From: Acaryochloris marina S15
GTDB taxonomy: Bacteria; Cyanobacteriota; Cyanobacteriia; Thermosynechococcales; Thermosynechococcaceae
Assembly: GCF_018336915.1 (NCBI RefSeq)
Contig: NZ_CP064926.1
Location: forward strand, 180,001 to 212,000
Direction of reading: 5' to 3'
DNA length: 32,000 bases
A model generated the notes under the pieces. It was not told the origin of the DNA and did no database searches. It was given only the letters and a program-made list of their open reading frames with translations. Shown one piece after another: positions 7,580 through 23,624 of the stretch; position 1 is the first letter of the stretch, and each line of letters starts with the position of its first letter. Made by a program: the position numbers and the translations under genes.

Positions 7580-8071
7580 ATGAGCCAATATCTGGTGATG
7601 ATTGTAAATAAAACAACCGCTCGTTTTCTCACCTTAAGAGATCCCCCACCCCTTGAATACTCTGGTCCTCGTCTAGTGGAACAACAGGCACTGCTCAATC
7701 CCATCCAGAGTCAGGTGGGGCGCGAATTATGGACGAGTAGCAAAAGCGGAGGCAATCGGGGGGCAACCCGCCAAAGTCATGGGTATGACGACCACCGTCA
7801 AAGGCACCTCAAGGAATTTGATCGACGGTTTGCCCATGCGATCAATGCTGGGATGAGCCACTTCATTCATACCTACCCCATCCAACACATCCTGCTAGTG
7901 GCTGAACCACAAATTCTGGGGCATTTACGGCCCACGCTAATGGCAACGTTACCGAAAGCCATTGTCCCCACAGAAGTCGCGAAGGATCTGTGTAACTTAT
8001 CTGTTTCAGAGATCTACCAATACCTACTCGATCAACAGTTGTTACCCAGGCTAGCTAAACAGGTCAGATAA
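7580..8071 (+). CDS. Hypothetical protein resembling the 'host attachment protein' (Host_attach) family
   Basis: GAAGGAG RBS upstream. The pattern YLVMIVNKTTARFLTL ... HGYDDHRQRHLKEFDRRFA ... ILLVAEPQILGHLR ... KDLCNLSVSEIYQYL matches my recollection of that family's layout. This is not verified by search. Confidence 0.55.
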   Translation: MSQYLVMIVNKTTARFLTLRDPPPLEYSGPRLVEQQALLNPIQSQVGRELWTSSKSGGNRGATRQSHGYDDHRQRHLKEFDRRFAHAINAGMSHFIHTYPIQHILLVAEPQILGHLRPTLMATLPKAIVPTEVAKDLCNLSVSEIYQYLLDQQLLPRLAKQVR

Positions 8072-8769: not shown

Positions 8770-8800
8770 AGGCATTACGTTTGTTGTGAGGCTAAGCACT

Positions 8801-9283
8801 ATGGAAGTGACTACCGTTGCCCTAGACATCCCTGAAAATACAAATTTAATCTTGGGTCAAAGCCATTTTATTAAAACAGTGGAGGATTTATACGAGATTA
8901 TGGTTGGAACTTGCCCACAGGCAAAATTTGGTCTGGCCTTCTGCGAAGCATCAGGGCCCTGTCTGATCCGGTTTGCTGGCAACGACCCCTCCCTCCAAGA
9001 CATCGCCGTCAGTAATGCCAAGAAGATCGCTGCGGGTCATAGTTTTATTCTATTGATGCAAGATGCTTACCCCATTAGCGTTTTGAATGCCATTCAGCAG
9101 TCCCCAGAGGTCTGCACCATTTACTGTGCCACGGCTAATCCTGTAGAAGTCATCCTTGCCCAGACGGACCAAGGTGCTGGGGTGTTAGGCGTGATTGATG
9201 GCTTCTCTCCTAAAGGGGTGGAAGGAGAAGAAGACATCTTGGAACGTCAAGATTTTCTTCGCCAAATTGGCTATAAATTTTAG
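8801..9283 (+). CDS. Adenosine-specific-kinase-family protein (Pfam 'Adenosine_kin'-like)
   Basis: MEVTTVALDIPENTNLILGQSHFIKTVEDLYE ... KFGLAFCEASGPCLIR ... AGHSFILLMQDAYPISVLNAI ... ATANPVEVI matches the conserved pattern I recall for this small family. The ATG at 8801 is preferred over the GTG at 8786. Confidence 0.65.
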   Translation: MEVTTVALDIPENTNLILGQSHFIKTVEDLYEIMVGTCPQAKFGLAFCEASGPCLIRFAGNDPSLQDIAVSNAKKIAAGHSFILLMQDAYPISVLNAIQQSPEVCTIYCATANPVEVILAQTDQGAGVLGVIDGFSPKGVEGEEDILERQDFLRQIGYKF

Positions 9284-12106: not shown

Positions 12107-13591
12107 TCAACCTTTGACCTGAAATTCCCCCGTTGAGGTTCTCCACACCTCGCTCAGGACTCGGCCACTGTTTGCCGCTTTGCATTGGATATGAATTGGC
12201 ATCTGGCCTGCCGCATGGGTTGAGCAACTTAAACAAGGATCAAAGGCCCGAATGCCTGCTTCGACTCGATTGAGCATTGACTCAGGAATATCCGGTCCAT
12301 GGAGGTAGTGACGAGCAATCTGGGCAACGGTGCGGTTCATCGCCAGATTGTTTTGCCCCGTGGCGATGATCAGATTAACGGATTGGAGTAACCCCGTTTC
12401 ATCTACTTGATAGTGATGAAACAATGTCCCTCTCGGTGCTTCACTCACCCCAATCCCTTCTAGTTGATTGACATCTGCCTGGGCTCGCAAGGGGGACTTG
12501 CAGAGTTCTGGATCTTCTAATTTCTGCTCAATGCGCTCAATACAGGCCAAAATCTCAATTAAGCGGGCGTAATGGTAGAAGAAAGAAGATGTAACGGTCC
12601 CATTGCCCCGCTGTCGAAATTCTTGTAATTCTTGATCGGCTAAGGGAGTGCCCATGCGATCACAGACATTCAGTCGGGCTAAAGGTCCCACCCGATACAT
12701 GCCACTCTCCAAACGGCACAATCCTGGAGACTGATTAGGATAGCCCAAGGGTCGATAGTAGGGTGACTTTAGATAAGAATCAGCCTGAACCGCTTCGCCA
12801 ATAAAGGAATGGAATTGGCACGGATCAAGATGATCTGCAATGATATTTCCGACACTATCCACAAAGCGTAAACAGCCATGGTAATGTTCCCAGGTTCCCT
12901 CTGTATTGATTAACCCCATAAATAAGCTGGGGAAATTACCAAAAATTCGAGCCTCACTAGCATGTCTATCCAACAGGTCTTTAAACCGATTTAGGGTTGA
13001 AAGGGCCGTTGACCGTACCTCTGACAACCCAGCTCGGATTTGTTTACGTCCCTCGCCGGTTAGAGCCGATCGTACACCTCCAGGGACAGCCCAAGCCGGG
13101 TGAATTTTCTGCCCACCCAAATGCTGAATCACTTCCTGTCCAAACTGGCGTAGCCGGATACCGCTGCGGGCAAGTTCCGGCTCTGCGGCCATCAGGCCAA
13201 ACACATTCCGTTGGGCCGGATCACTCTCCCACCCCAACAGTAGATCGGGACTACTCAGATGAAAAAAACTCAAGGCATGGGACTGAATAATCTGACCTAA
13301 GTTCATTAAGCGGCGCAATTTCTCTGCCGCTAGAGGAATATGAACTGCAAGAATTTGGTCTCCGGCTTTCGCCGACGCTAGCAGGTGACTCACAGGGCAA
13401 ATCCCACAGATGCGCGGGGTAATTCCCGGCATCTCCCAAAATGGTCGGCCTTCGCAAAACTTCTCAAATCCCCGAAACTCCGTCACATGAAATCGAGCAT
13501 CTGTGACTTCACCCGCGTCATCCAAGTAAATCGAGATTTTGGCATGGCCTTCAATCCGAGTGACCGGATCAATGATGATTCTCTGAGGCAT
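12107..13591 (-). CDS. hoxH: Bidirectional [NiFe]-hydrogenase large subunit HoxH
   Basis: N-terminal RIEGH and [10 protein letters not shown] (CxxC Ni-Fe ligands). C-terminal DPCLSCSTH is followed by a 35-aa extension, the expected HoxW substrate. Confidence 0.95.
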
Positions 13592-13629: not shown

Positions 13630-14256
13630 CTAGCCACTACACCAGGCATCATACTCTCGATCTTTATAGGCTTCTGGGTACTCCTCACGAAACGCTTCAA
13701 AAGCAGTTTTTTCAAGCTTTTCGGCACGTTGATGAGCCGCTTCCGCTTGGACTGCATCAACGTCCTGCCAAGCTTGTTGACAGGCTTTAGAATCGGCTCC
13801 CTGTCGTTGACAGATAGCGTGAGCGTCAGCAATTAACTGTTGTGTTTTCTGAGCAAGCTCCACTTCTAAGGGGTTTTCCAAGAAGTCACTTTGATCCAGG
13901 ATGTCAGAGATTGAGAGAATGCCCAGCAGATTCCACTGGATAATGGGTGCGGCATGAATACCGCTGGTGGTCAATAATCGTGCGGCATATTCGACCCCGA
14001 GTTCCGGATTGAGCACCAAACAAGGTTTCGTCATAATTTCATAGACTCTCACCTGCCGTGGATCACGGCCAAAGGACGTTACTTTGGCAACGATATCGAA
14101 GGCTGTCACAATTCCGTAAGCATCTTGCTCATGGTTCCTATCAACAATGAGGGCATGAATCCCATGCCGTCGCATCAATCGGACGGCCTCAGCCACCTTC
14201 GCCGAATTCCGAATTTTGATGACTTCCGTAGTCATAATGTCTGCAACTTTCATCAT
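13630..14256 (-). CDS. CBS-domain pair fused to a CP12-like C-terminal domain (CBS-CP12, long form)
   Basis: Two CBS repeats (VADIMTTEV..HALIV; IMTKPCLV..AAPII). The tail AICQRQGADSKACQQAWQDVDAVQAEAAHQRAEK aligns almost residue-for-residue with the N-terminal Cys pair and AWD_VEEL core of CP12. The C-terminal CP12 Cys pair is absent (FREEYPEAYKDREYD). GGAGAA RBS upstream. Confidence 0.85.
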   Translation of the reverse strand: MMKVADIMTTEVIKIRNSAKVAEAVRLMRRHGIHALIVDRNHEQDAYGIVTAFDIVAKVTSFGRDPRQVRVYEIMTKPCLVLNPELGVEYAARLLTTSGIHAAPIIQWNLLGILSISDILDQSDFLENPLEVELAQKTQQLIADAHAICQRQGADSKACQQAWQDVDAVQAEAAHQRAEKLEKTAFEAFREEYPEAYKDREYDAWCSG

Positions 14257-14295
14257 TGTTGTTTCTCCAAGCGTTTATGCCAGTCCTATCCAAAC

Positions 14296-15723
14296 TCACC
14301 CCACTGGTGCCTCCTGAGCTTGCAAGCGGGGCTTAACCAACCGTGACTTTCCCCAATTCCAGAGGGCACCTAAGCCCAAGAGAACAATGACAATGCTCAT
14401 AATTCCGCCGATGAGGGGAATAGCGGTAATTAACATCAGAACCACTACCCCCATCAGGAATGGGATAAATCGGTTTGCTGTCTTATGCAGGTTGAATTGG
14501 CTGCTGAGCCAGCGTCCACCCAGATCGCTGATTAATACGGGAGCAATCAAACTCGCGAAGCTGCCAATACCGACCCATAGGGCCAGATTAGCCAAGGTTC
14601 CGACTCCCAGAACGGGCCAGGCTAGTCCTTGGAGGGTCAAGACAAGCACAATAAATGCAAGGATGGTCAGAACTGCGATCACAACACTCGCTACTCCCAC
14701 CAACACACTGGTCACAATGCCCCAACCCAACGTTCTCAAGGGTCGAGTCTGAATATTCTGAGTTAATCCTTCTGTCCACTTTGGAAATGCCCAAAGCAAG
14801 GCACATCCCACTAACCCAATCGTCAGCAAGCGTTGCAGTTGATCTAGCACGATATTCGTCGGCTTGGCTGGCGTCGGTTCCCATTCTGGAATCGGTTGAT
14901 GCGTGATTTTACCTGTCACTTGCGATCCATCATTTAGGGAGGCAGTAGTTGGTGATTTGTAGGTCAACCGACCTTTGACTTGGGCCGAATCTGTGAGGGT
15001 TAATCCTGCCGGCACATCAGGAATCTTAAGGCGAGGGCTAGGTCCGAATATAGGTTTCCAAGTCTGGTTGTCGCCGACGGTAACGGCCATATCTTGACCC
15101 ACTGTCCCCTCTAAGGTTAGTCCTCCCATACCCCCCACAACATCCTGATCAACCGTTCCTGCCAGTAGTGCCTGACCACTCGCAACTGTGAGAGTGCCAC
15201 CGATGGACGTTTGGGGTTGACTTTCCAGGCTCAGCCCTGCGGCGATCATGTCATCTTTCACCCGAGCCTGATTTTTGAGAAGCAGTGCCTCTCCTGCTAT
15301 CCGCACGTCGTCTTGAACCGTTCCGTTCACCACCACGGCTTGCCCTGCAGCGATTAAATCCCCTTCAACAGACCCATTGAGGGCAACCAAAGCGCCGGCC
15401 AGAATAGCATCACCTTTAACAGTGCCATCAATCGTTATTTCATCACCTGCTAAGTAAACATCCTTCTCAACGGTGCCCGATAGTTGAATGGTCTCTCCTG
15501 CTGCAAACAGATTATCTTTTAAGGTTCCGTCAACCGTTATACGGTCCCCAGTTGCATAATAGTTACCTTGAATGACCTCTGTAGCCTCCACGGTGATCTG
15601 ATCTTGCGTCACGAAATTGGGGGCTCCAACCGCAGAAACCGCTAATAGCAATGGGGCAATGACCAAGGCCATTAGAAACAACAGCACTTGTCTAAAATAT
15701 TGTCTCGATGGTTTAGTTTGCAT
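14296..15723 (-). CDS. Membrane protein with an N-terminal hydrophobic anchor or signal, about 9 bactofilin-like beta-helix repeats and a C-terminal polytopic domain
   Basis: Hydrophobic N-terminus (VLLFLMALVIAPLLLAVSAVGA). About 17-aa repeats of the form h-x-x-A-G-x-x-h-x-h-x-G-x-V-x-x-D (e.g. VYLAGDEITIDGTVKGD, AILAGALVALNGSVEGD, LIAAGQAVVVNGTVQDD). The last ~190 aa contain several long hydrophobic helices. Confidence 0.75.
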   Translation of the reverse strand: MQTKPSRQYFRQVLLFLMALVIAPLLLAVSAVGAPNFVTQDQITVEATEVIQGNYYATGDRITVDGTLKDNLFAAGETIQLSGTVEKDVYLAGDEITIDGTVKGDAILAGALVALNGSVEGDLIAAGQAVVVNGTVQDDVRIAGEALLLKNQARVKDDMIAAGLSLESQPQTSIGGTLTVASGQALLAGTVDQDVVGGMGGLTLEGTVGQDMAVTVGDNQTWKPIFGPSPRLKIPDVPAGLTLTDSAQVKGRLTYKSPTTASLNDGSQVTGKITHQPIPEWEPTPAKPTNIVLDQLQRLLTIGLVGCALLWAFPKWTEGLTQNIQTRPLRTLGWGIVTSVLVGVASVVIAVLTILAFIVLVLTLQGLAWPVLGVGTLANLALWVGIGSFASLIAPVLISDLGGRWLSSQFNLHKTANRFIPFLMGVVVLMLITAIPLIGGIMSIVIVLLGLGALWNWGKSRLVKPRLQAQEAPVG

Positions 15724-15769
15724 CTGAGGTACCTACACTGAAAGTGATAAAGTAGCCTGTTCTGAAGGG

Positions 15770-16315
15770 CTAAATAGCTCCGTTTAAGGCAGCTTGGTCT
15801 TCAAAAGCTTCAACCACATCCCAGGCCACAGAACATTCTTTTGAAATCTGGGTTTGCGGGTCACCACAAATAATCCGGGCATGTTTTAAGGCATTGTCGA
15901 TTTGCTGAGCAAGCCAATTGGCTTGATAGTTATGCTTCCCATCCGTTTTCATCACTAAGTCGGTCACGGATACAATGCCTAAAAGCTGCTGTTCATCAAT
16001 CACTGGTGCTCTCTGAATGCCTGATTCTGCAAGTAATTGAGCTAATTCTTCCACAGTGAGATCAGGATGGGCTGTAATACAAGGTTCGCGAACTAGCTTT
16101 TGAATGCCAATTTCATGGGGATTTTTGCCGACAGCCAAGACTTGGTAAACAATATCTCGCTCAGTGATGATACCGTAAGCAGTTTGTCCCTCAGGGTGTT
16201 CAACAATGAGGGAGCGGACTTTATGGTATTGCATCAGGGCAATGGCTTGTGCCACGGTTGCTGTATCCTGAATCGCAATCACCTCTTGGGTCATAATGTC
16301 TCTAACTTTAAGCAT
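15770..16315 (-). CDS. CBS-domain pair fused to a truncated CP12-like domain (CBS-CP12, short form)
   Basis: I prefer the ATG at 16315 (MLKVRDIMTQ) because AAGGAGAA lies upstream. Two CBS repeats are followed by ARIICGDPQTQISKECSVAWDVVEAFEDQAA, which is a CP12 N-terminal Cys pair plus an AWD_VE core. The protein ends shortly after that core. Confidence 0.8.
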   Translation of the reverse strand: MLKVRDIMTQEVIAIQDTATVAQAIALMQYHKVRSLIVEHPEGQTAYGIITERDIVYQVLAVGKNPHEIGIQKLVREPCITAHPDLTVEELAQLLAESGIQRAPVIDEQQLLGIVSVTDLVMKTDGKHNYQANWLAQQIDNALKHARIICGDPQTQISKECSVAWDVVEAFEDQAALNGAI

Positions 16316-16388: not shown

Positions 16389-16934
16389 TCACCCGAATTT
16401 AATTTGATCTCGGCCCTCGAGTTGAGGCTTCTTCCCCTGCAGTAGCGCTTCTAATACCAATTGGATTCGAGAAGGTGATGGCGGGCAACCCGGTAAAAAG
16501 AGATCAACGGGAACAACGGTATGCACGGGTTGAACCCGATCCAATAAAGGGGGAACAATCTCTTCCTCTGCAGGAATTTGGGGCACCAGATCTGCCATGT
16601 CGATGTAAGACCGCTCAAGAACCCTCTCCGCTGTACCCAAAACATTACGTAACGCTGTGACATTCCCAGTAACGGCACAGTCCCCAAAGGCAATCAGGTA
16701 TTGAGTGCAATCTCGGACTCGATGAATCATCTCCCAATGGTCTGTATTGGCTATTGCGCCTTCGACTAATGCCACATCTACTTCTTGTGGATACTGCTTG
16801 GCATCCATAAAGGGGCTGTAAACAAGATCTATCTGGTGGGCCAACTCAAATAGCCACTCGTCAAGGTCCAGAAAAGACATATGGCATCCTGAGCATCCTC
16901 CTAGCCAAACAGTCGCTAACTTCAGTTTTGCCAT
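16389..16934 (-). CDS. hoxY: Bidirectional [NiFe]-hydrogenase small subunit HoxY
   Basis: MAKLKLATVWLGGCSGCHMSFLD and GDCA..LPGCPP Fe-S ligand motifs. The ATG at 16934 is preceded by GGAGG. The longer track ORF (to 17012) adds a non-conserved leader. Confidence 0.93.
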   Translation of the reverse strand: MAKLKLATVWLGGCSGCHMSFLDLDEWLFELAHQIDLVYSPFMDAKQYPQEVDVALVEGAIANTDHWEMIHRVRDCTQYLIAFGDCAVTGNVTALRNVLGTAERVLERSYIDMADLVPQIPAEEEIVPPLLDRVQPVHTVVPVDLFLPGCPPSPSRIQLVLEALLQGKKPQLEGRDQIKFG

Positions 16935-17075: not shown

Positions 17076-17795
17076 TCACTTTTGAATCCATTCCCGCCTC
17101 GTTCTAGCAGTAGCAATAAATTCAAGTTGGGTACGATCATGTTCCATCTCCCCAACAGTTGAACCACGACGAAAGATGGCTCCTGTTGGACAGGCATTGA
17201 CGCACTTTCCACAAGCGGTACAGCTCTCGGCTTCCCCCCAAGGCTGGTTTAAATCTGTAATCACTCGGGAAGTCCGACCTCGACCTGCCATATCCCAGGT
17301 ATGAGCCCCTTCAATCTCATCGCAAACTCGAATACAGCGAGTACATAAAACACAGCGATTATGATCAACGCCAAATTGAGGATGGGAAATATCAACGGAG
17401 CGATCTGGAAATTGATAGGTAAAACGCACATGATCAATCCCCATCTCAATGGCAAGATCTTGCAACTCGCAGTGGTGATTGGAAACGCACACTGAACAGA
17501 TATGATTCCCTTCCGCGAATAGCAGCTCCACGATCATGCGTCGATAGTGTTTAAGCCGTTCTGTTTGGGTTAGAACGATCATCCTCTCTGCCACTGGCGT
17601 GACGCAGGCGGCCAATAGCTTAGAATTTCCACTAACCTCTACTAGGCAAAGTCGGCAGGCTCCCCATAAGGAAACGCCCTGTAAGTTGCATAGCGTCGGA
17701 ATATGAATCCCTGAAGCTGTAGCGGCTTCAAGGATTGTTTCATCACCCCGTGCACTGATGAGTTGATCATCAATCTTGAGGGTCTTAACAGCCAT
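17076..17795 (-). CDS. hoxU: Hydrogenase diaphorase subunit HoxU (NuoG N-terminal-like Fe-S protein)
   Basis: N-terminal 2Fe-2S ferredoxin-like segment (CNLQGVSLWGACRLCLVEV), a His/Cys cluster (HICSVCVSNHHCELQ) and two 4Fe-4S motifs (CVLCTRCIRVC, CTACGKCVNACP). Confidence 0.93.
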   Translation of the reverse strand: MAVKTLKIDDQLISARGDETILEAATASGIHIPTLCNLQGVSLWGACRLCLVEVSGNSKLLAACVTPVAERMIVLTQTERLKHYRRMIVELLFAEGNHICSVCVSNHHCELQDLAIEMGIDHVRFTYQFPDRSVDISHPQFGVDHNRCVLCTRCIRVCDEIEGAHTWDMAGRGRTSRVITDLNQPWGEAESCTACGKCVNACPTGAIFRRGSTVGEMEHDRTQLEFIATARTRREWIQK

Positions 17796-17835: not shown

Positions 17836-18027
17836 TTACCAAGAATTCTCCTGGTTTAGATCTGGATCAGCTGGATCGCCTTCAAAGGGTTGGATTCCCA
17901 CCTCTGGATAGTCATCATGGGAAGGACTAAAGATACGGAGAATCGGTTGAGCAATATAGCTAAGGAAGCGTCGAACCGTTTTGCTTAAGGATCGTATGGA
18001 TAGAGATTTACCCTGGAGTGTTGCCAT
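17836..18027 (-). CDS. Small hypothetical ORF (63 aa) immediately upstream of hoxU
   Basis: ATG lies after a GAGGAC-like RBS and ends 40 nt before hoxU. It is the first ORF downstream of two copies of the TTTTCCTCA element. No family recognised, so it may not be translated. Confidence 0.3.
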   Translation of the reverse strand: MATLQGKSLSIRSLSKTVRRFLSYIAQPILRIFSPSHDDYPEVGIQPFEGDPADPDLNQENSW

Positions 18028-18326: not shown

Positions 18327-19334
18327 CTAAAGATCGCTTTCAGGAATTTCTTCTTTAAAATCAATGACCAATTGCATGGTTTCTAGGACTAAAGATCTGA
18401 GGTCTTGAGTGAGAGGGAGTTTAGCCTCAGGACCAAACCAACGGTCAAAAGTTTTGACATAGGGTTCTTTGCCCTTTAAGTAACCCTCCATGAAACGTAC
18501 TAGAGCGTAATTCACTTGATCAACAAATTTGGAATTATTCTCAGGCATCATGCAGGCAATTCCCTCTCTTGAAAAATACCCAACAACATTAAAGTCCTCA
18601 GGATTCTGGCTGTTTTGTAGCCAGCCTTCTAGTAAAATACCGTCGGCTGCAAAGGCATCAACGGTGCCCTGCTGCAATGCTTTATATCCCTGAGCATGAT
18701 CTTGGATGGCGATGATCTGGGCTCGGGATTGAGTACGGCGAATCGCAATCTCATTTGTTGTGCCCGCAACAGCGGCGATTTTCTTATTGGCCAACGCCTC
18801 GGGTTCCCATGCCTCACTCCCCTTCTTCATCAACAAGCGGGTTCCTGTCAGACTATAGCTAACGGAAAAGTCTATTTCCTTATCCCTTTCCCAGGTATAG
18901 CTGCTAGCATCACAGACAATATCTACTTCACCTGTGACTAATTTAGGAATTCGATCGCTAGGGGTAAGAGCAATCAACTTTAGCTCAATCTCTTTTCCAA
19001 GCGTTTTTGATAATTGGGCCTGTACCTGTTTCAACATTTCGATTGAGTAACCCTGAAATTGCCCATGTTCATCCATGAAGGCAAAGGGGAGAGCATTTTT
19101 ATTAGTTCCAGCTGTTACAGTGCCAGTACGAGCTACTTTTTCGAGGACCGTTTCTGCAGAAACAAGCTGTGGGTTAGCTATGGTGAAGAGACTACAAAGG
19201 GTGGTCAGTAAAGTAAGCCTAACTCCTCGCCCCCAAACCTTTACAAGGGGATGAGGGAAGCGGTTTGGATCAACAGGATATTGCATGCTCGTATTCTGAA
19301 TAATTCGGACTAAGTTTATAGAAAAAAAGAACAT
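18327..19334 (-). CDS. Periplasmic polar-amino-acid-type solute-binding protein (SBP family 3), orphan
   Basis: Signal-like segment LTLLTTLCSLFTIANPQLVSA. Family-3 SBP patterns are present (GTVTAGTNKNALPFAF, GYSIEM, DIVCDASSYTWERDKEIDFS, VDAFAADGILL). The start is uncertain (19334 or the ATG at 19286). No permease or ATPase genes are adjacent. Confidence 0.8.
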   Translation of the reverse strand: MFFFSINLVRIIQNTSMQYPVDPNRFPHPLVKVWGRGVRLTLLTTLCSLFTIANPQLVSAETVLEKVARTGTVTAGTNKNALPFAFMDEHGQFQGYSIEMLKQVQAQLSKTLGKEIELKLIALTPSDRIPKLVTGEVDIVCDASSYTWERDKEIDFSVSYSLTGTRLLMKKGSEAWEPEALANKKIAAVAGTTNEIAIRRTQSRAQIIAIQDHAQGYKALQQGTVDAFAADGILLEGWLQNSQNPEDFNVVGYFSREGIACMMPENNSKFVDQVNYALVRFMEGYLKGKEPYVKTFDRWFGPEAKLPLTQDLRSLVLETMQLVIDFKEEIPESDL

Positions 19335-19415: not shown

Positions 19416-21080
19416 CTATGAGGAGTGATGATCGTCAGATGCCTTATTATGCATAAGCTCTAAGTACTCATCTTTGAAAAAATGTAGGGTACTTAGTATG
19501 GGATTTGGGGCAGATTTACCAAGGCCGCACAGGCTAGTATCCTTGACCATTTCGCAAAGTTGGTTCAGAGACTCTAAATCATCTGTTCTTGCTTTCCCTT
19601 CGCAGATTTTTGTGAGCAACTGGTGAAGCTGAACCGTTCCTGCCCGACAGGGAACGCATTTGCCACAGGACTCTTCCATACAAAACTCCATGAAGAAACG
19701 AGCGACGTCCACCATATTGGTGGCCTGATCCATGACAATCATCCCACCAGACCCCATAATGGACCCCAAACGGGTTAGAGACTCATAATCTACAGGCGTA
19801 TCAAAGGCATGGACGGGAATACATCCCCCTGAGGGGCCACCGGTTTGCACTGCTTTAGCCGATCCATCAAGGACCCCCCCGCCCATCTGTTCAACGATTT
19901 GACGCAGGGAGGTACCCATGGGTACTTCAATCAATCCGGTGTTTTGGATCTTGCCCGCTAAGGAAAAGACTTTGGTACCTTTGCTCTTGTCTGTGCCAAT
20001 CCCAGCAAACCATTCAGCACCGTTGCGAATGATAGGAGCGATATTCGCAAAAGTTTCCACATTATTAATCAATGTTGGACAACCCCAAAGTCCGGATTCA
20101 GCAGGGTAAGGTGGTCGGGGGTGAGGTAAGCCGCGCTTCCCTTCGATGGAGGCCATTAGGGCTGTTTCCTCACCACAGACAAAGGCACCCGCACCAATGC
20201 GGATATCGATCCGAAAGTCAAAGGGGGACTCAAAAATTTGACTGCCGAGTAAACCTTGCTTGCGAGCTTGACGAAGGGCCGTTTCGAGGTGATTGATGGC
20301 GAGGGGATACTCACCTCGAATATAGATGTAGCCTTGGTTGGCGCCGACAGCATAGGCTGCAATTGCCATCCCTTCTAACACCCGATGTGGATCGCTTTCT
20401 AAGACACTGCGATCCATAAAAGCACCAGGGTCTCCTTCATCACCATTGCAAATCACATACTTTTGTCCTGGGGGCATTTTGGCAACTGTTGACCATTTCA
20501 AGCCTGTGGGGTAACCGCCGCCGCCTCGCCCTCGTAGACCACTTTGAGTAATCTGATCAATCACTTCACTGGGGGTCATATCATAAAGTGCCTGGTAGAG
20601 GGCTATATAGCCTTTATTGGCCATATATTCCTTAATTTCCTTAGGGTCGATGTGGCCACTGTTTTCAAGGACGATGGGGTGTTGAAGGGTGAAAAAAGGG
20701 TGATGTCGGGGCTGATAAGAGGAGGGTTGAGGCAAAGAGAGGGGAGTATTGTTTGGTAACTCTTTGGGAAGATTGGATTGGAGGGTTTCTTGACAGGCGT
20801 GGACCAGTTCAGGGACGCTCTCGGCGGTCACTTGATCGTAGAGAATGCCTGAAGGGTCTAGGCGGACTAGGGGACCTCGGCTACATAGTCCCATACAACC
20901 TACCCCCCGGACTTGAATGGGAGGGGTGAGGGCTTGTGTTGAGATCGCAACTTCGATTTGTTTTTTTACTTCTAATGCATTAGCAGATAAACAGCCCCCC
21001 ACCGTACAACAGCGGATGCAGGGAGCACTGAGGATCTCTTGTTCTCGCTTAGCTAGAGTTTGTAGCTCTTGTAAATCCAT
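19416..21080 (-). CDS. hoxF: Hydrogenase diaphorase subunit HoxF (NuoF-like NAD(P)H/FMN/4Fe-4S)
   Basis: N-terminal thioredoxin-like 2Fe-2S segment. NuoF motifs are [27 protein letters not shown] and the 4Fe-4S motif [10 protein letters not shown]. The ATG directly abuts the hoxE stop (TAAATG). Confidence 0.95.
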
Positions 21081-21590
21081 TTATGTTGCTACCTTACATT
21101 GAGGATGGCCCATCATCTGTGTGACTTGCTGACCCAATTTTTCTGAGGTTTGATAGCCGACAACTTGACCATCCAACACCACAGCAGGAGCGCTCCCACA
21201 GGCCCCTAAGCAACGAGCAGTGCTGAGTGATAAGCATCCATCCCTGGTGGTTTCCCCAGTTTGAATTTGAGCGATCTGTTCCACGGTTGATAGGAGTGAT
21301 GCAGCCCCTTTTACAAAACATGCCGTTCCCATACAAACCACACAGGTATGACGTCCAGAGGGGGTTAGCGAGAAAAAGTGATAGAACGTGGCCACACCAT
21401 AGACTTGACTGGGAGGTAACTTCAAACTGTGGGCAATATGCAATAGGACATCTTGTTCTAAATATCCGAACAATTCCTGAGCTTTATGGAGAACTTCAAT
21501 CAGAGAATTGGGCTGATATTGATGCCGTTTCATCGTTGCCTCTAACACCCTAAAACGATGATCTTTATTGGGATGAGGTTTGCCATCCAC
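21081..21590 (-). CDS. hoxE: Hydrogenase diaphorase subunit HoxE (NuoE-like 2Fe-2S)
   Basis: HPNKDHRFRVLEATMKRHQYQPNSLIEVLHKAQELFGYL and VCMGTACFVKG...CLGACGSAP are typical HoxE/NuoE motifs. GTG start with AAGGGAG 12 nt upstream. Confidence 0.9.
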   Translation of the reverse strand: MDGKPHPNKDHRFRVLEATMKRHQYQPNSLIEVLHKAQELFGYLEQDVLLHIAHSLKLPPSQVYGVATFYHFFSLTPSGRHTCVVCMGTACFVKGAASLLSTVEQIAQIQTGETTRDGCLSLSTARCLGACGSAPAVVLDGQVVGYQTSEKLGQQVTQMMGHPQCKVAT

Positions 21591-21661: not shown

Positions 21662-22735
21662 TCAGGCCGGCTGCTGAGGACGCACAACCATTACAGAACA
21701 GGACGCATGGTTCGCAACATATTTCCCCACACTGCCAAGAAGCATTTCGCTGAGTCCAGAACGACCCCGATTACCCACTAGAATTAAGTCTGATGATCGG
21801 TTCTTGGCAAACTCACAAATGATTTCGCCGGGAGATCCGGGTTGTTGAATAAATTCAGTCGGAATACCTGCTTCCCTTGCGATCGCAGTATAGGAACGCA
21901 ATTGGGGTAGGCAATCACTATCATAGGTATTCCACTGTCGTTGCTGGCTGTAGAGGATGTCATCGCGCAAACTAGGATAGTCATCCAGCCGTTGCTGAGT
22001 AAAAGCGGTTGGATGGGTGATAGAAATGGGAACTTTGGCAATATCCGGTGGCAAGACATGCAGCAACATCAGCCTAGCCGTGGACATTGATTTGGCAACG
22101 TTTATCGCCATATTAAAGATTTGTGGGTTTATGGCACTCCCATCCATGGCCACTAATATACTGCGGTAAGACAACTTTTCGCGCCATGCTTCGGAAGACT
22201 GTTGATTCGCCGCTAGGGTATTTATGGATTGTTTGGGGATGAACTCGGGGACATCTTGGTGGTGGACAATCAGGACTGAGCAGGGAGCATTATGTGTGAC
22301 GTAATTGCTAACACTGCCCAATAGAAGTTTGCTGAGAAAGTTTCGACTGCGTCGTCCAATGATGATCGTATCGGCTTGCCATTGTCGGGCTATTTCACAA
22401 ATCTCCCTGCCTGGATCTCCTAAAGATTGTTGATAGACAACGGTAAGACCCTTTTCTTTTGCCTGATTGGCTCGAGATCTGAGTAACTCAAGACTGCTGG
22501 CTTTGAAGACATCTAAGTCATTGAGATAAGAGTTTACGACCCCAGTATGTGACAGGTCAAACTCCTCTAATACGCCTGGCATCAGAGGATACGGAGGATA
22601 TCCCTCCTCAGTCGAGGAAATGACATGCAATAATAAGAGCTTTGCATGGGTTGCCTTAGCTAGAACCACAGACTGCATAAAGGTTTGCTGACTAAAGGCG
22701 GAGTGATCTAAAGCCACCAGAATTTTTTTTGACAT
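21662..22735 (-). CDS. Tandem universal stress protein (two UspA domains)
   Basis: Two repeats of the USP pattern (KILVALDHS...GSVSNYVTHNAPCSVLIV and SILVAMDGS...GSVGKYVANHASCSVMVV). The ATG at 22735 is preceded by GGGAGG. The gene ends 71 nt upstream of hoxE on the same strand. Confidence 0.9.
   Translation of the reverse strand: MSKKILVALDHSAFSQQTFMQSVVLAKATHAKLLLLHVISSTEEGYPPYPLMPGVLEEFDLSHTGVVNSYLNDLDVFKASSLELLRSRANQAKEKGLTVVYQQSLGDPGREICEIARQWQADTIIIGRRSRNFLSKLLLGSVSNYVTHNAPCSVLIVHHQDVPEFIPKQSINTLAANQQSSEAWREKLSYRSILVAMDGSAINPQIFNMAINVAKSMSTARLMLLHVLPPDIAKVPISITHPTAFTQQRLDDYPSLRDDILYSQQRQWNTYDSDCLPQLRSYTAIAREAGIPTEFIQQPGSPGEIICEFAKNRSSDLILVGNRGRSGLSEMLLGSVGKYVANHASCSVMVVRPQQPA
21879..21886. 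repeat. HIP1 octamer
   Basis: Exact GCGATCGC. Confidence 0.95.
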
Positions 22736-22853
22736 GACAACCTCCCAAAGCATCCAGCTCCAGTTATATATCTACTTATAGTTCCAATTTCCGTCGACCT
22801 TCTAGAAGGGAAGACCGACCCAAACATCTATCCTGGACGTTTCCTGCTTAGGG

Positions 22854-22885: not shown

Positions 22886-23105
22886 TTTAGCTGCAACCCA
22901 GACATTCATGTCTAGAGAAAATTTCGAGCCCTTGTCATCAGGGATTACTCAAACCATCCAGTATGCTTCACAATCTTGGGACGAATGATAGCAACCAGAC
23001 AAGTGCTAAGTTGAGTGACTGACAAGAAAATAAAGCTCTACCATGGAGGTATAAGGGGTTGATCGGAACTGTCCAGACGGTTGTTATTTGTGTGGAGGAA
23101 TCCTG

Positions 23106-23624
23106 ATGAGATACCATCGCATTTTGGTTGCACTAGATACTTCATTCCTTCAACCCGCTGTTTATGAGCAGGCATTGGCAGAAGCAAAATTACATTCAGC
23201 TGAGCTAAAGCTATTTCATGGTGTAGAGGCAGAAATTAATCCCTTGGGTAACTCAACGATCTCACCCCTAGGGCCCCCTTTAGAATCAGGTTACCTTTCT
23301 CCATCTGCTGTGGATTACGAGTTGGCACAGCAAGCCTGGGAAGCACAAATTGCGGAAGCCAAACAATGGTTACTGGAATTTTCCTTAAAAGCAGAGCAGC
23401 AAGGTATAAAGACAACCTTTGAGGCCGAATTAGGCAATCCTGGACCTCAGGTTTGCGAATGGGCTAAAGACTGGCACGCTAATCTGATTATCGTGGGTCG
23501 CCATGGTCGCACAGGACTCAAGGAACTCTTACTGGGGAGTGTCAGCAACCATATCGTCCACCATGCCCCTTGTTCTGTCTTGGTCATTCAAGGAGAAACG
23601 GTTGTTTCAGAAGACTCCCATTGA
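23106..23624 (+). CDS. Universal stress protein (single UspA domain)
   Basis: YHRILVALD ... IIVGRHGRTGLKELLLGSVSNHIVHHAPCSVLVI. The ATG at 23106 is preceded by GGAGGA. Confidence 0.9.
   Translation: MRYHRILVALDTSFLQPAVYEQALAEAKLHSAELKLFHGVEAEINPLGNSTISPLGPPLESGYLSPSAVDYELAQQAWEAQIAEAKQWLLEFSLKAEQQGIKTTFEAELGNPGPQVCEWAKDWHANLIIVGRHGRTGLKELLLGSVSNHIVHHAPCSVLVIQGETVVSEDSH

Follow-up and report, generated by a model that had tools for sequence, protein, structure and literature searches.

Here we analysed a stretch of 32,000 nt from the cyanobacterium Acaryochloris marina S15 (contig NZ_CP064926.1, positions 180,001-212,000; hereafter the window, in whose positions the coordinates of its genes are given), in which three genes are inserted between hoxY and hoxH, the genes for the small and the large subunit of the bidirectional [NiFe] hydrogenase. 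Two of the three encode fusions of a pair of CBS domains with a CP12 domain, one short and one long, and the third, which lies between them, encodes a membrane protein with a beta-helix. Because adjacency to hoxH survives rearrangements of the hox cluster in two separate CBS-CP12 clades, we take the hydrogenase as the target and propose, by analogy with the CBS-CP12 protein of Microcystis and with slightly less than even confidence, that the two proteins are adenylate- and thiol-sensing oligomers acting on the hydrogenase, or specifically on HoxH. The sensor reading and the linkage to hox are already known for single CBS-CP12 genes. New are the prevalence figures and the two-clade structure of the hoxH-adjacent CBS-CP12 genes, the correspondence of the short form to the ordered core of the Microcystis structure 5NMU, the WCSG tail and, as it appears, the recurrent DUF8173 membrane-protein partner.

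Three genes between hoxY and hoxH

On the minus strand the genes follow each other in the order hoxY, short CBS-CP12, membrane protein, long CBS-CP12 and hoxH, which agrees with an earlier sequence-only reading of this DNA that had placed three same-strand genes in the interval. The flanking hoxY (16389-16934, minus strand; Pfam Oxidored_q6, 1.4e-29) encodes 181 aa on identical public contigs, with a longer open reading frame (ORF) extending to 17012, and hoxH (12107-13591, minus strand; Pfam NiFeSe_Hases) encodes a protein with 94% identity to HoxH from plasmid pREB4 of A. marina MBIC11017. Between them, the short CBS-CP12 gene (15770-16315, 181 aa), the membrane-protein gene (14296-15723, 475 aa) and the long CBS-CP12 gene (13630-14256, 208 aa), all on the minus strand, leave gaps of 73, 46, 39 and 38 nt from hoxY to hoxH, and Shine-Dalgarno-like sequences are present. 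A consensus scan found no promoter- or terminator-like sites of the trio's own in these gaps, the overall counts being at or below the shuffled expectation. From the gap lengths and the empty scan, it is plausible that the inserted genes share a transcript with hoxY and hoxH. For the short CBS-CP12 gene, AAGGAG lies 7 nt before the ATG at 16315, so that this ATG, as already chosen in the sequence-only reading, is the right start rather than that of an alternative longer ORF from 16366.

Three other Acaryochloris genomes and one metagenome-assembled genome (MAG) of the Thermosynechococcaceae served to compare the ratios of nonsynonymous to synonymous substitution (dN/dS), which were 0.08-0.14 for the short CBS-CP12 gene, 0.13-0.27 for the membrane-protein gene and 0.04-0.10 for the long CBS-CP12 gene, next to 0.04-0.11 for the Hox subunits. 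With values of 0.04-0.27, the three inserted genes are under purifying selection, and they look like genuine, selected, operon-internal accessory genes of the plasmid-type Acaryochloris hoxEFUYH operon. The remaining hydrogenase genes are hoxE (21081-21590), hoxF (19416-21080) and hoxU (17076-17795), the last of which opens the block that runs from hoxU through hoxY to hoxH. They were assigned from Pfam domains on an identical public contig (2Fe-2S_thioredx and Complex1_51K for hoxE and hoxF) and from the annotation of pREB4. The five genes hoxE, hoxF, hoxU, hoxY and hoxH are co-oriented on the minus strand with hoxW, hypA, hypB, hypF and hypC adjacent, which identifies the cluster as a hoxEFUYH operon; hypC and hypF lie next door to hoxH and are divergent to it.

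Contigs encoding identical proteins are present in public read assemblies, and the same five-gene stretch is annotated on pREB4, where the trio is labelled 'CBS domain-containing protein', 'polymer-forming cytoskeletal protein' and 'CP12 domain-containing protein'. The arrangement is thus less unusual than the sequence-only reading had held: its exact order was already annotated, and both CBS-CP12 genes in hox clusters and truncated variants, which usually co-occur with full-length ones, have been published (PMC6142219). The hox plasmid of A. marina has been described as an anoxia-induced, fermentative redox module (PMC8949462), and the trio is unmentioned in the text of the two comparative Acaryochloris papers that discuss this plasmid.

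The short and the long CBS-CP12 protein

The long protein has two CBS stretches (Pfam CBS, PF00571, 1.6e-22) followed by a full-length CP12 domain (PF02672, 6.7e-20, 72.1 bits, covering positions 1-70 of the 70 in the model), and its alignment with the Microcystis CBS-CP12 structure 5NMU (1.3e-59) passes through the CP12 core. Its N-terminal Cys pair, C-x9-C, and its core, AWQDVDAV, lie in the stretch AICQRQGADSKACQQAWQDVDAVQAEAAHQRAEK. The canonical C-terminal Cys pair is replaced and the terminus is a conserved WCSG (tail ...EYPEAYKDREYDAWCSG), a (W/F)CSG ending that is common to many hox-linked homologues, although several hox-linked long forms terminate in ...EARLYDL without the WCSG Cys. 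The protein therefore falls outside canonical CP12 with its C-x8-C and YDD tail, as its own tail, ...FREEYPEAYKDREYDAWCSG, holds a single Cys. Sister strains, including A. marina MBIC11017, have a C-x16-C pair here (AFCEEYPEAFKDREYDAWCSG), of which the partner Cys is Arg in this strain. In two other hox loci (L051, 8748-9245, and L076, 8557-9099; L numbers are labels of the loci compared), a gene near hoxH encodes a CBS-pair protein of about 165 aa that lacks the CP12 core and the Cys pair and ends in ...NWCSG, each lying directly upstream of a normal long CBS-CP12 gene. As these proteins keep WCSG without the core, the terminal motif seems to be conserved independently of it.

In the short protein, two CBS stretches (PF00571, 2.1e-24) are followed by a CP12 match that covers only positions 1-41 of the 70 in the model (6e-5, 24.2 bits against a cut-off of 22.7). 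It has C-x10-C and the core AWDVVEAF (IICGDPQTQISKECSVAWDVVEAF) and terminates 10 residues after the core. The alignment with 5NMU (3.9e-40) spans chain residues 5-178, and the protein stops about 5 residues past the last aligned residue. Its AlphaFold2 model (pLDDT 86.3) shows the CBS pair and helices at 130-146 and 153-180, which represent the first two CP12 helices (alpha5-alpha6), and the top Foldseek match of this model is again 5NMU (1.1e-17, TM 0.66-0.70) over the whole resolved length of that structure, which is the CBS-CP12 of Microcystis aeruginosa PCC 7806 (IPF_2164; 5NMU, 5NPL, 5NVD; Hackenberg et al. 2018, PMC6142219). In that protein the ordered alpha5-alpha6 region ends at about residue 178 and mediates hexamer formation (PMC6142219). 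Since the alignment and the fold match end at this point, the short form keeps the ordered hexamer-interface part and lacks only the disordered tail.

The motifs that the sequence-only reading had quoted for both proteins are thus all present, including the loss of the canonical C-terminal pair in the long one and the early end of the short one, and both tails give significant CP12 matches. Its description of two differently truncated paralogs applies to the short protein; the long one has a full-length CP12 domain, and the pair is old and belongs to classes that had already been described.

The ribose-phosphate pattern of CBS domains, G-h-h-S/T-x-x-D, occurs twice in each protein, as GIVTAFD and GILSISD in the long one and as GIITERD and GIVSVTD in the short one; the Microcystis protein has GIVTETD and GIISVSD. 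The latter is linked to TrxA and has both Cys pairs (...YCEANPDALECRIYD), in contrast to the long protein, which ends in WCSG without the canonical C-terminal pair, and to the short protein, which has no disordered tail. The Microcystis protein binds AMP at two sites per monomer, forms a hexamer via CP12 helix alpha5 and inhibits its target in an AMP-dependent manner (PMC6142219).

Canonical CP12 (6GFO chain E) matches the C-terminal 70 residues of the long protein (2.4e-10), which retains its AWD core and N-terminal Cys pair as well as a tail of the form ...EYPEA...EYD.... Canonical CP12 differs in having no CBS fusion and in having the C-terminal Cys pair needed for GAPDH binding, which the long protein lacks. 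The Microcystis fusion formed no ternary complex (PMC6142219). The CBS-pair fold is also matched by hypoxic response protein 1 of M. tuberculosis (Rv2626c; 1XKF, 1Y5H), by AcuB and by plant CBSX1/2 (Foldseek, about 2e-11), which have no CP12 helices and come from different lineages and operons. Proteins of this type are small adenylate-binding proteins expressed at low oxygen or low energy. The A. thomasi orthologue has been auto-named 'Hypoxic response protein 1'.

Two clades of CBS-CP12 genes at hoxH

The short and the long protein of the window share 41% identity. A neighbour-joining tree was built from 62 CBS-CP12-type sequences. Of these, 59 came from hox loci and one was the Microcystis 5NMU protein; the remaining two lay on contigs to which the membrane protein had led, one of which has no hox genes. 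The tree splits deeply into a short and a long clade. The short clade comprises Acaryochloris, A. thomasi, the Thermosynechococcaceae MAG and the Leptolyngbya/Nodosilinea/Adonisia group, and the long clade includes the TrxA-linked Microcystis protein. A recent tandem duplication with differential truncation could be ruled out, given the low identity and the separate deep clades, each of which has single-copy hox-linked members elsewhere. Likewise, the short clade is not exclusive to hox, as none of the three homologues from other genera whose surroundings were checked lies inside a hox cluster. In the published classification (PMC6142219), the long protein, with its N-terminal Cys pair and no C-terminal pair, belongs to class CBS-CP12-N, and the short one, with its truncated CP12, to class CBS-CP12-N-tr.

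For the survey of hox loci, one genome per species was scanned for relatives of HoxH, the best 80 loci were kept, all of them cyanobacterial, and homologues of the window proteins were located in them. A CBS-CP12-type gene lies upstream of hoxH in 45 of the 80, with a median gap of 55 nt and with 33 of the genes within 150 nt. The order hoxY, long-type gene, hoxH was found in 23 of the 80 loci and the order hoxY, short-type gene, hoxH in 12; four further loci without hoxY upstream (L020, L021, L051 and L076) still have a CBS gene beside hoxH. Three Acaryochloris species-level genomes and one Thermosynechococcaceae MAG have both types, as does A. thomasi, and in Adonisia the short gene precedes hoxH with a long gene after hypF in the same cluster. 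From these counts, a single CBS-CP12 gene before hoxH is the commonest state in the sample, and the presence of both is a minority state but not a unique one. Elsewhere, members of either clade serve as the only CBS-CP12 gene directly before hoxH, and Acaryochloris and a few relatives keep both.

For Nostoc sp. PCC 7120 (Alr0765) and Synechococcus sp. PCC 7002, a CBS-CP12 gene within the hox cluster had already been reported (PMC6142219, PMC7521041), and the Nostoc homologue is co-expressed with the hox genes (PMC6142219). Like the long protein, those two lack the C-terminal Cys pair, and in the Nostocales loci of our survey it is a long-clade gene that lies directly upstream of hoxH. Their clusters were reported with one CBS-CP12 gene, whereas the window has members of both clades and a membrane-protein gene between them. 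The linkage to hox is conserved well outside this strain for the CBS-CP12 genes, and the membrane protein too recurs in several lineages.

The membrane beta-helix protein

The gene between the two CBS-CP12 genes encodes a protein with a match to Pfam Bactofilin (PF04519, 4.2e-9, 37 bits against a cut-off of 27.9) at residues 94-169, and precomputed Pfam data place PF26514 (DUF8173) over the C-terminal membrane region of an identical protein and of most of its 248 homologues at E<=1e-3, which pipelines often name bactofilin or CcmA. In its AlphaFold2 model (pLDDT 90.4), an N-terminal helix (5-32) is followed by a beta-helix (37-276) and then by further helices (288-462), in line with the membrane beta-helix protein of the sequence-only reading. 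Hydropathy and the positive-inside rule predict that the N-terminus (three Lys/Arg) is cytoplasmic and followed by a signal anchor, that the beta-helix lies outside the cytoplasm and that about five transmembrane helices make up the C-terminal part. The beta-helix has 31 acidic against 15 basic residues, the basic loops and tail of the transmembrane part are predicted to face the cytoplasm, and the acidic beta-helix probably faces the periplasm or the lumen. In this topology the parts exposed to Hox would be limited to two loops of about 20 residues each and a short tail, with about 250 residues of beta-helix outside. As the beta-helix is predicted to be outside the cytoplasm, the protein is unlikely to tether Hox through it, which weakens the membrane tethering that the sequence-only reading had suggested.

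Bactofilins are small, soluble, cytoplasmic filament formers. They (PF04519; Thermus BacA, 6RIB) have a repeated beta-helical sequence pattern in common with the membrane protein, but the latter differs in its length of 475 aa, its signal anchor, its predicted extracytoplasmic beta-helix of about 240 residues and its transmembrane helices. A Foldseek search of the model against the Protein Data Bank gave no match at E<=1e-3, the best hits being generic extracellular beta-helices, with 6RIB at E=3.2. The topology prediction and the missing fold match accordingly led us to set aside a bactofilin cytoskeleton or a cytoplasmic Hox tether as the leading idea. A known transporter or nickel permease was also rejected, as NCBIfam gave nothing above noise, Foldseek returned no transporter, and no conserved His, Cys or acidic residues lie within the membrane. 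In the family alignment, the conserved intramembrane residues include none that are polar or charged apart from Gly and Pro, and a cytoplasmic loop motif, LGGRWLL, is conserved.

Homologues of the membrane protein stand between hoxY and hoxH in other Acaryochloris genomes, in A. thomasi (61% identity, in the full five-gene order), in the Cyanothece SIO1E1 MAG (45%, followed by a long CBS-CP12), in Cyanobacteria bacterium J06639_1 (37%, with a long CBS-CP12), in Scytonema RU_4_4 (43%, no CBS gene) and in two Nostocales-like contigs (no CBS gene), and Nostoc UHCC 0251 has a remnant at this place. The hox-linked members represent six or more cyanobacterial lineages, and in the family tree they are dispersed over the cyanobacterial clade. 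Other cyanobacterial members adjoin PFOR fragments, PEP synthase, Usp (universal stress protein) or GAPDH genes, or a flavoprotein gene followed by CBS-CP12 and phosphofructokinase, and none of the distant, probably non-cyanobacterial members in our metagenome scan is linked to hox. The membrane protein is a passenger that recurs in the hoxY-hoxH interval without being obligatory there. We found no relevant paper on the DUF8173 family, on a bactofilin with hydrogenase or on the hox linkage, and this recurrent partner of hox appears to be new.

Two further observations concern this family. Compared with MBIC11017 (L005, 7869-9296), the membrane-protein gene has a synonymous divergence of 0.087, against 0.31-0.40 for all neighbouring genes, which points to recombination or gene conversion in the recent past over a tract confined to this gene. 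In addition, the distant members (L102-L162, 27 metagenome loci) are followed, often within 200 nt, by a co-oriented gene whose unannotated product of about 650 aa looks like a radical-SAM enzyme, and in 13 of these loci by a conserved protein of about 200 aa further downstream; this neighbourhood is lineage-specific and uninformative on hox.

The hoxY-hoxH interval also takes unrelated insertions elsewhere, among them a P-type ATPase, HlyD/FtsX and small membrane proteins. One family of 150-aa small membrane proteins occupies it in nine Nostocales loci (L023, L024, L032, L034, L039, L041, L058, L062 and L071) and a second family of 224-238 aa in three loci (L011, L018 and L035); neither has a Pfam match, and the families are unrelated. 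As these additional families recur there, several kinds of membrane protein have been inserted repeatedly between hoxY and hoxH.

Possible targets of the CBS-CP12 proteins

Based on homology to Microcystis 5NMU, we infer that both CBS-CP12 proteins would form oligomers in which the CBS pair binds AMP and the N-terminal Cys pair of CP12 serves as a thiol switch. Their synthesis would coincide with that of HoxY and HoxH in dark, anoxic, low-energy conditions, and they would act on the hydrogenase, through HoxH or the HoxYH module, such that H2 turnover is matched to energy charge and redox state. The short protein would provide only the ordered, oligomer-forming core, the long protein would add a disordered effector tail ending in WCSG, and mixed oligomers are possible. 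Canonical CP12 plugs the NAD site of GAPDH, and on this model one can conceive of the whole trio as a dedicated hydrogenase gate, in which mixed short/long oligomers would read AMP and thiol redox, the tail (...EYPEA...EYDAWCSG) would dock in a nucleotide or active-site pocket of Hox, and the DUF8173 protein would place or couple the complex at the membrane; we regard this elaborate version as unlikely. A dedicated redox- or adenylate-sensing module had also been put forward in the sequence-only reading, of which the sensing and the linkage to hox hold, while the dedicated action on Hox is a matter of inference.

Several observations weigh against a hydrogenase target. Phosphoribulokinase is the only biochemically demonstrated target of a CBS-CP12 protein (PMC6142219). 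No CBS-CP12 gene lies upstream of hoxH in 35 of the 80 loci: 27 of these have hoxY directly upstream of hoxH, so that the interval is demonstrably empty of CBS-CP12, and the remaining eight, four of which are short contigs, have no hoxY upstream. Synechocystis has unrelated ORFs at this position. As many hoxH loci do without it, CBS-CP12 is not needed for Hox function in general. Moreover, of the three short-clade homologues checked in other genera, one adjoins hyp genes and the other two have neither hox nor hyp in their vicinity. A long-clade member (L095) is a neighbour of phosphofructokinase and has no hox genes around it, the membrane protein occurs in three hox clusters that lack CBS-CP12 altogether, and most members of the membrane-protein family are not linked to hox. 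An alternative is that the CBS-CP12 proteins are co-expressed with Hox in the dark or in anoxia without contacting it and, loaded with AMP, inhibit phosphoribulokinase or other central-carbon enzymes, so that pathways which use up ATP and NADPH are closed during fermentation. Such a metabolic brake would make use of the one activity demonstrated for the family, AMP-dependent inhibition of phosphoribulokinase, and it would suit the view of the hox plasmid as a fermentation module (PMC8949462), the phosphofructokinase neighbour in L095, the published members beside pyruvate kinase, nif and TrxA genes (PMC6142219) and the glycolytic and fermentative genes (PFOR, PEP synthase, GAPDH, Usp) around the non-hox homologues of the membrane protein. 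However, simple co-regulation does not require the specific adjacency to hoxH that two clades have kept through rearrangements, and the hox-linked forms lack the C-terminal Cys pair of the Microcystis protein that was tested on phosphoribulokinase. We consider this explanation, the main rival, somewhat unlikely.

The position immediately before hoxH would also suit an accessory of maturation or metal handling, in which the WCSG Cys and the N-terminal Cys pair assist the assembly or metal loading of HoxH. The C-terminal (W/F)CSG is kept even in the CBS proteins without a CP12 core (L051, L076), short-clade genes adjoin hypD, hypE and hypB in Myxosarcina, a long gene follows hypF in Adonisia, and a connection with iron acquisition is claimed for the Nostoc homologue Alr0765 in the title of a paper. 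Yet many functional hox clusters have no CBS-CP12 gene, the long forms ending in ...EARLYDL have no WCSG Cys, the partner Cys of the terminal pair is Arg in this strain, and Pfam and NCBIfam profile searches showed no similarity to any Hyp protein, all of which makes such a role quite improbable. CBS pairs fused to transport proteins regulate MgtE, ClC and OpuA, and the membrane protein might accordingly be channel- or transporter-like with the CBS-CP12 proteins as its adenylate-sensing regulators in trans, so that the link to Hox would be indirect. Five lineages have a long-clade CBS-CP12 gene after the membrane-protein gene; the two are immediate neighbours in Acaryochloris, L047, L085 and L089 and are separated by one gene in L095, which has no hox. 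The conserved LGGRWLL loop is predicted to face the cytoplasm. This idea strikes us as very unlikely, given the three hox clusters with the membrane protein and no CBS-CP12, the more than 40 with CBS-CP12 and no membrane protein, a membrane domain without a transporter fold match and the lack of conserved polar or charged residues within the membrane. Least credible is that the three genes are neutral passengers, chance insertions unrelated to Hox or to each other: while the interval does accept many unrelated insertions elsewhere, all three genes are under purifying selection and the same families recur at the same position in distant lineages. We thus tentatively retain the hydrogenase, and HoxH in particular, as the target of the CBS-CP12 proteins.

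Further genes around the operon

Beside hypF lies a gene of the PF04008 'adenosine-specific kinase' family (8786-9283, plus strand; Pfam 6e-77), a family that is found in 12 of the 80 hoxH loci (for instance L045, 13173-13667), ten of which also have a short CBS-CP12 gene. All 12 belong to Acaryochloris or to the Leptolyngbya/Nodosilinea/Adonisia group and none to the Nostocales. This is an AMP-related enzyme family, adjoining proteins whose characterised relative binds AMP. The adjacent hyp cluster also contains a Host_attach/baeRF_family12 gene (7580-8071, plus strand; Pfam 1.5e-25). Its homologues lie directly upstream of a short-clade CBS-CP12 gene in Altericista and Myxosarcina (L172, 4431-4937; L174, 4274-4771) and between hoxF and hoxU in two Calothrix loci (L055, L077). 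The baeRF_family12 protein, loosely linked in the window, is a possible partner and may be a further member of the hox accessory genes.

Between hoxF and hoxU, the window has a gene for a solute-binding protein (18327-19334, minus strand; GrrP-like, TIGR04262, 194 bits against a cut-off of 190) and a conserved 63-aa ORF (17836-18027, minus strand), a spot that is occupied by an IS1 transposase in MBIC11017. Genes for universal stress proteins flank hoxE (21662-22753, minus strand, and 23088-23624, plus strand); a homologue is found close to hox in 22 of the 80 loci, and non-hox members of the membrane-protein family have Usp neighbours as well.

Implications

The present study bears on the post-synthesis control of the cyanobacterial bidirectional hydrogenase and on its partial membrane association, which matter for biological H2 production. 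Most of the 80 closest HoxH loci have a CBS-CP12 gene immediately before hoxH, and the locus offers concrete candidates for such control, namely two small proteins and one membrane protein, in addition to the loosely linked baeRF12-like and PF04008 genes. Tractable homologues are available in Alr0765 of Nostoc 7120 and in the gene in the hox cluster of Synechococcus 7002. If carbon metabolism rather than Hox is the target, the reach of CP12-type regulation would extend to fermentation, and the gate reading, if true, would represent the first case of a [NiFe] hydrogenase being controlled post-translationally by energy charge.

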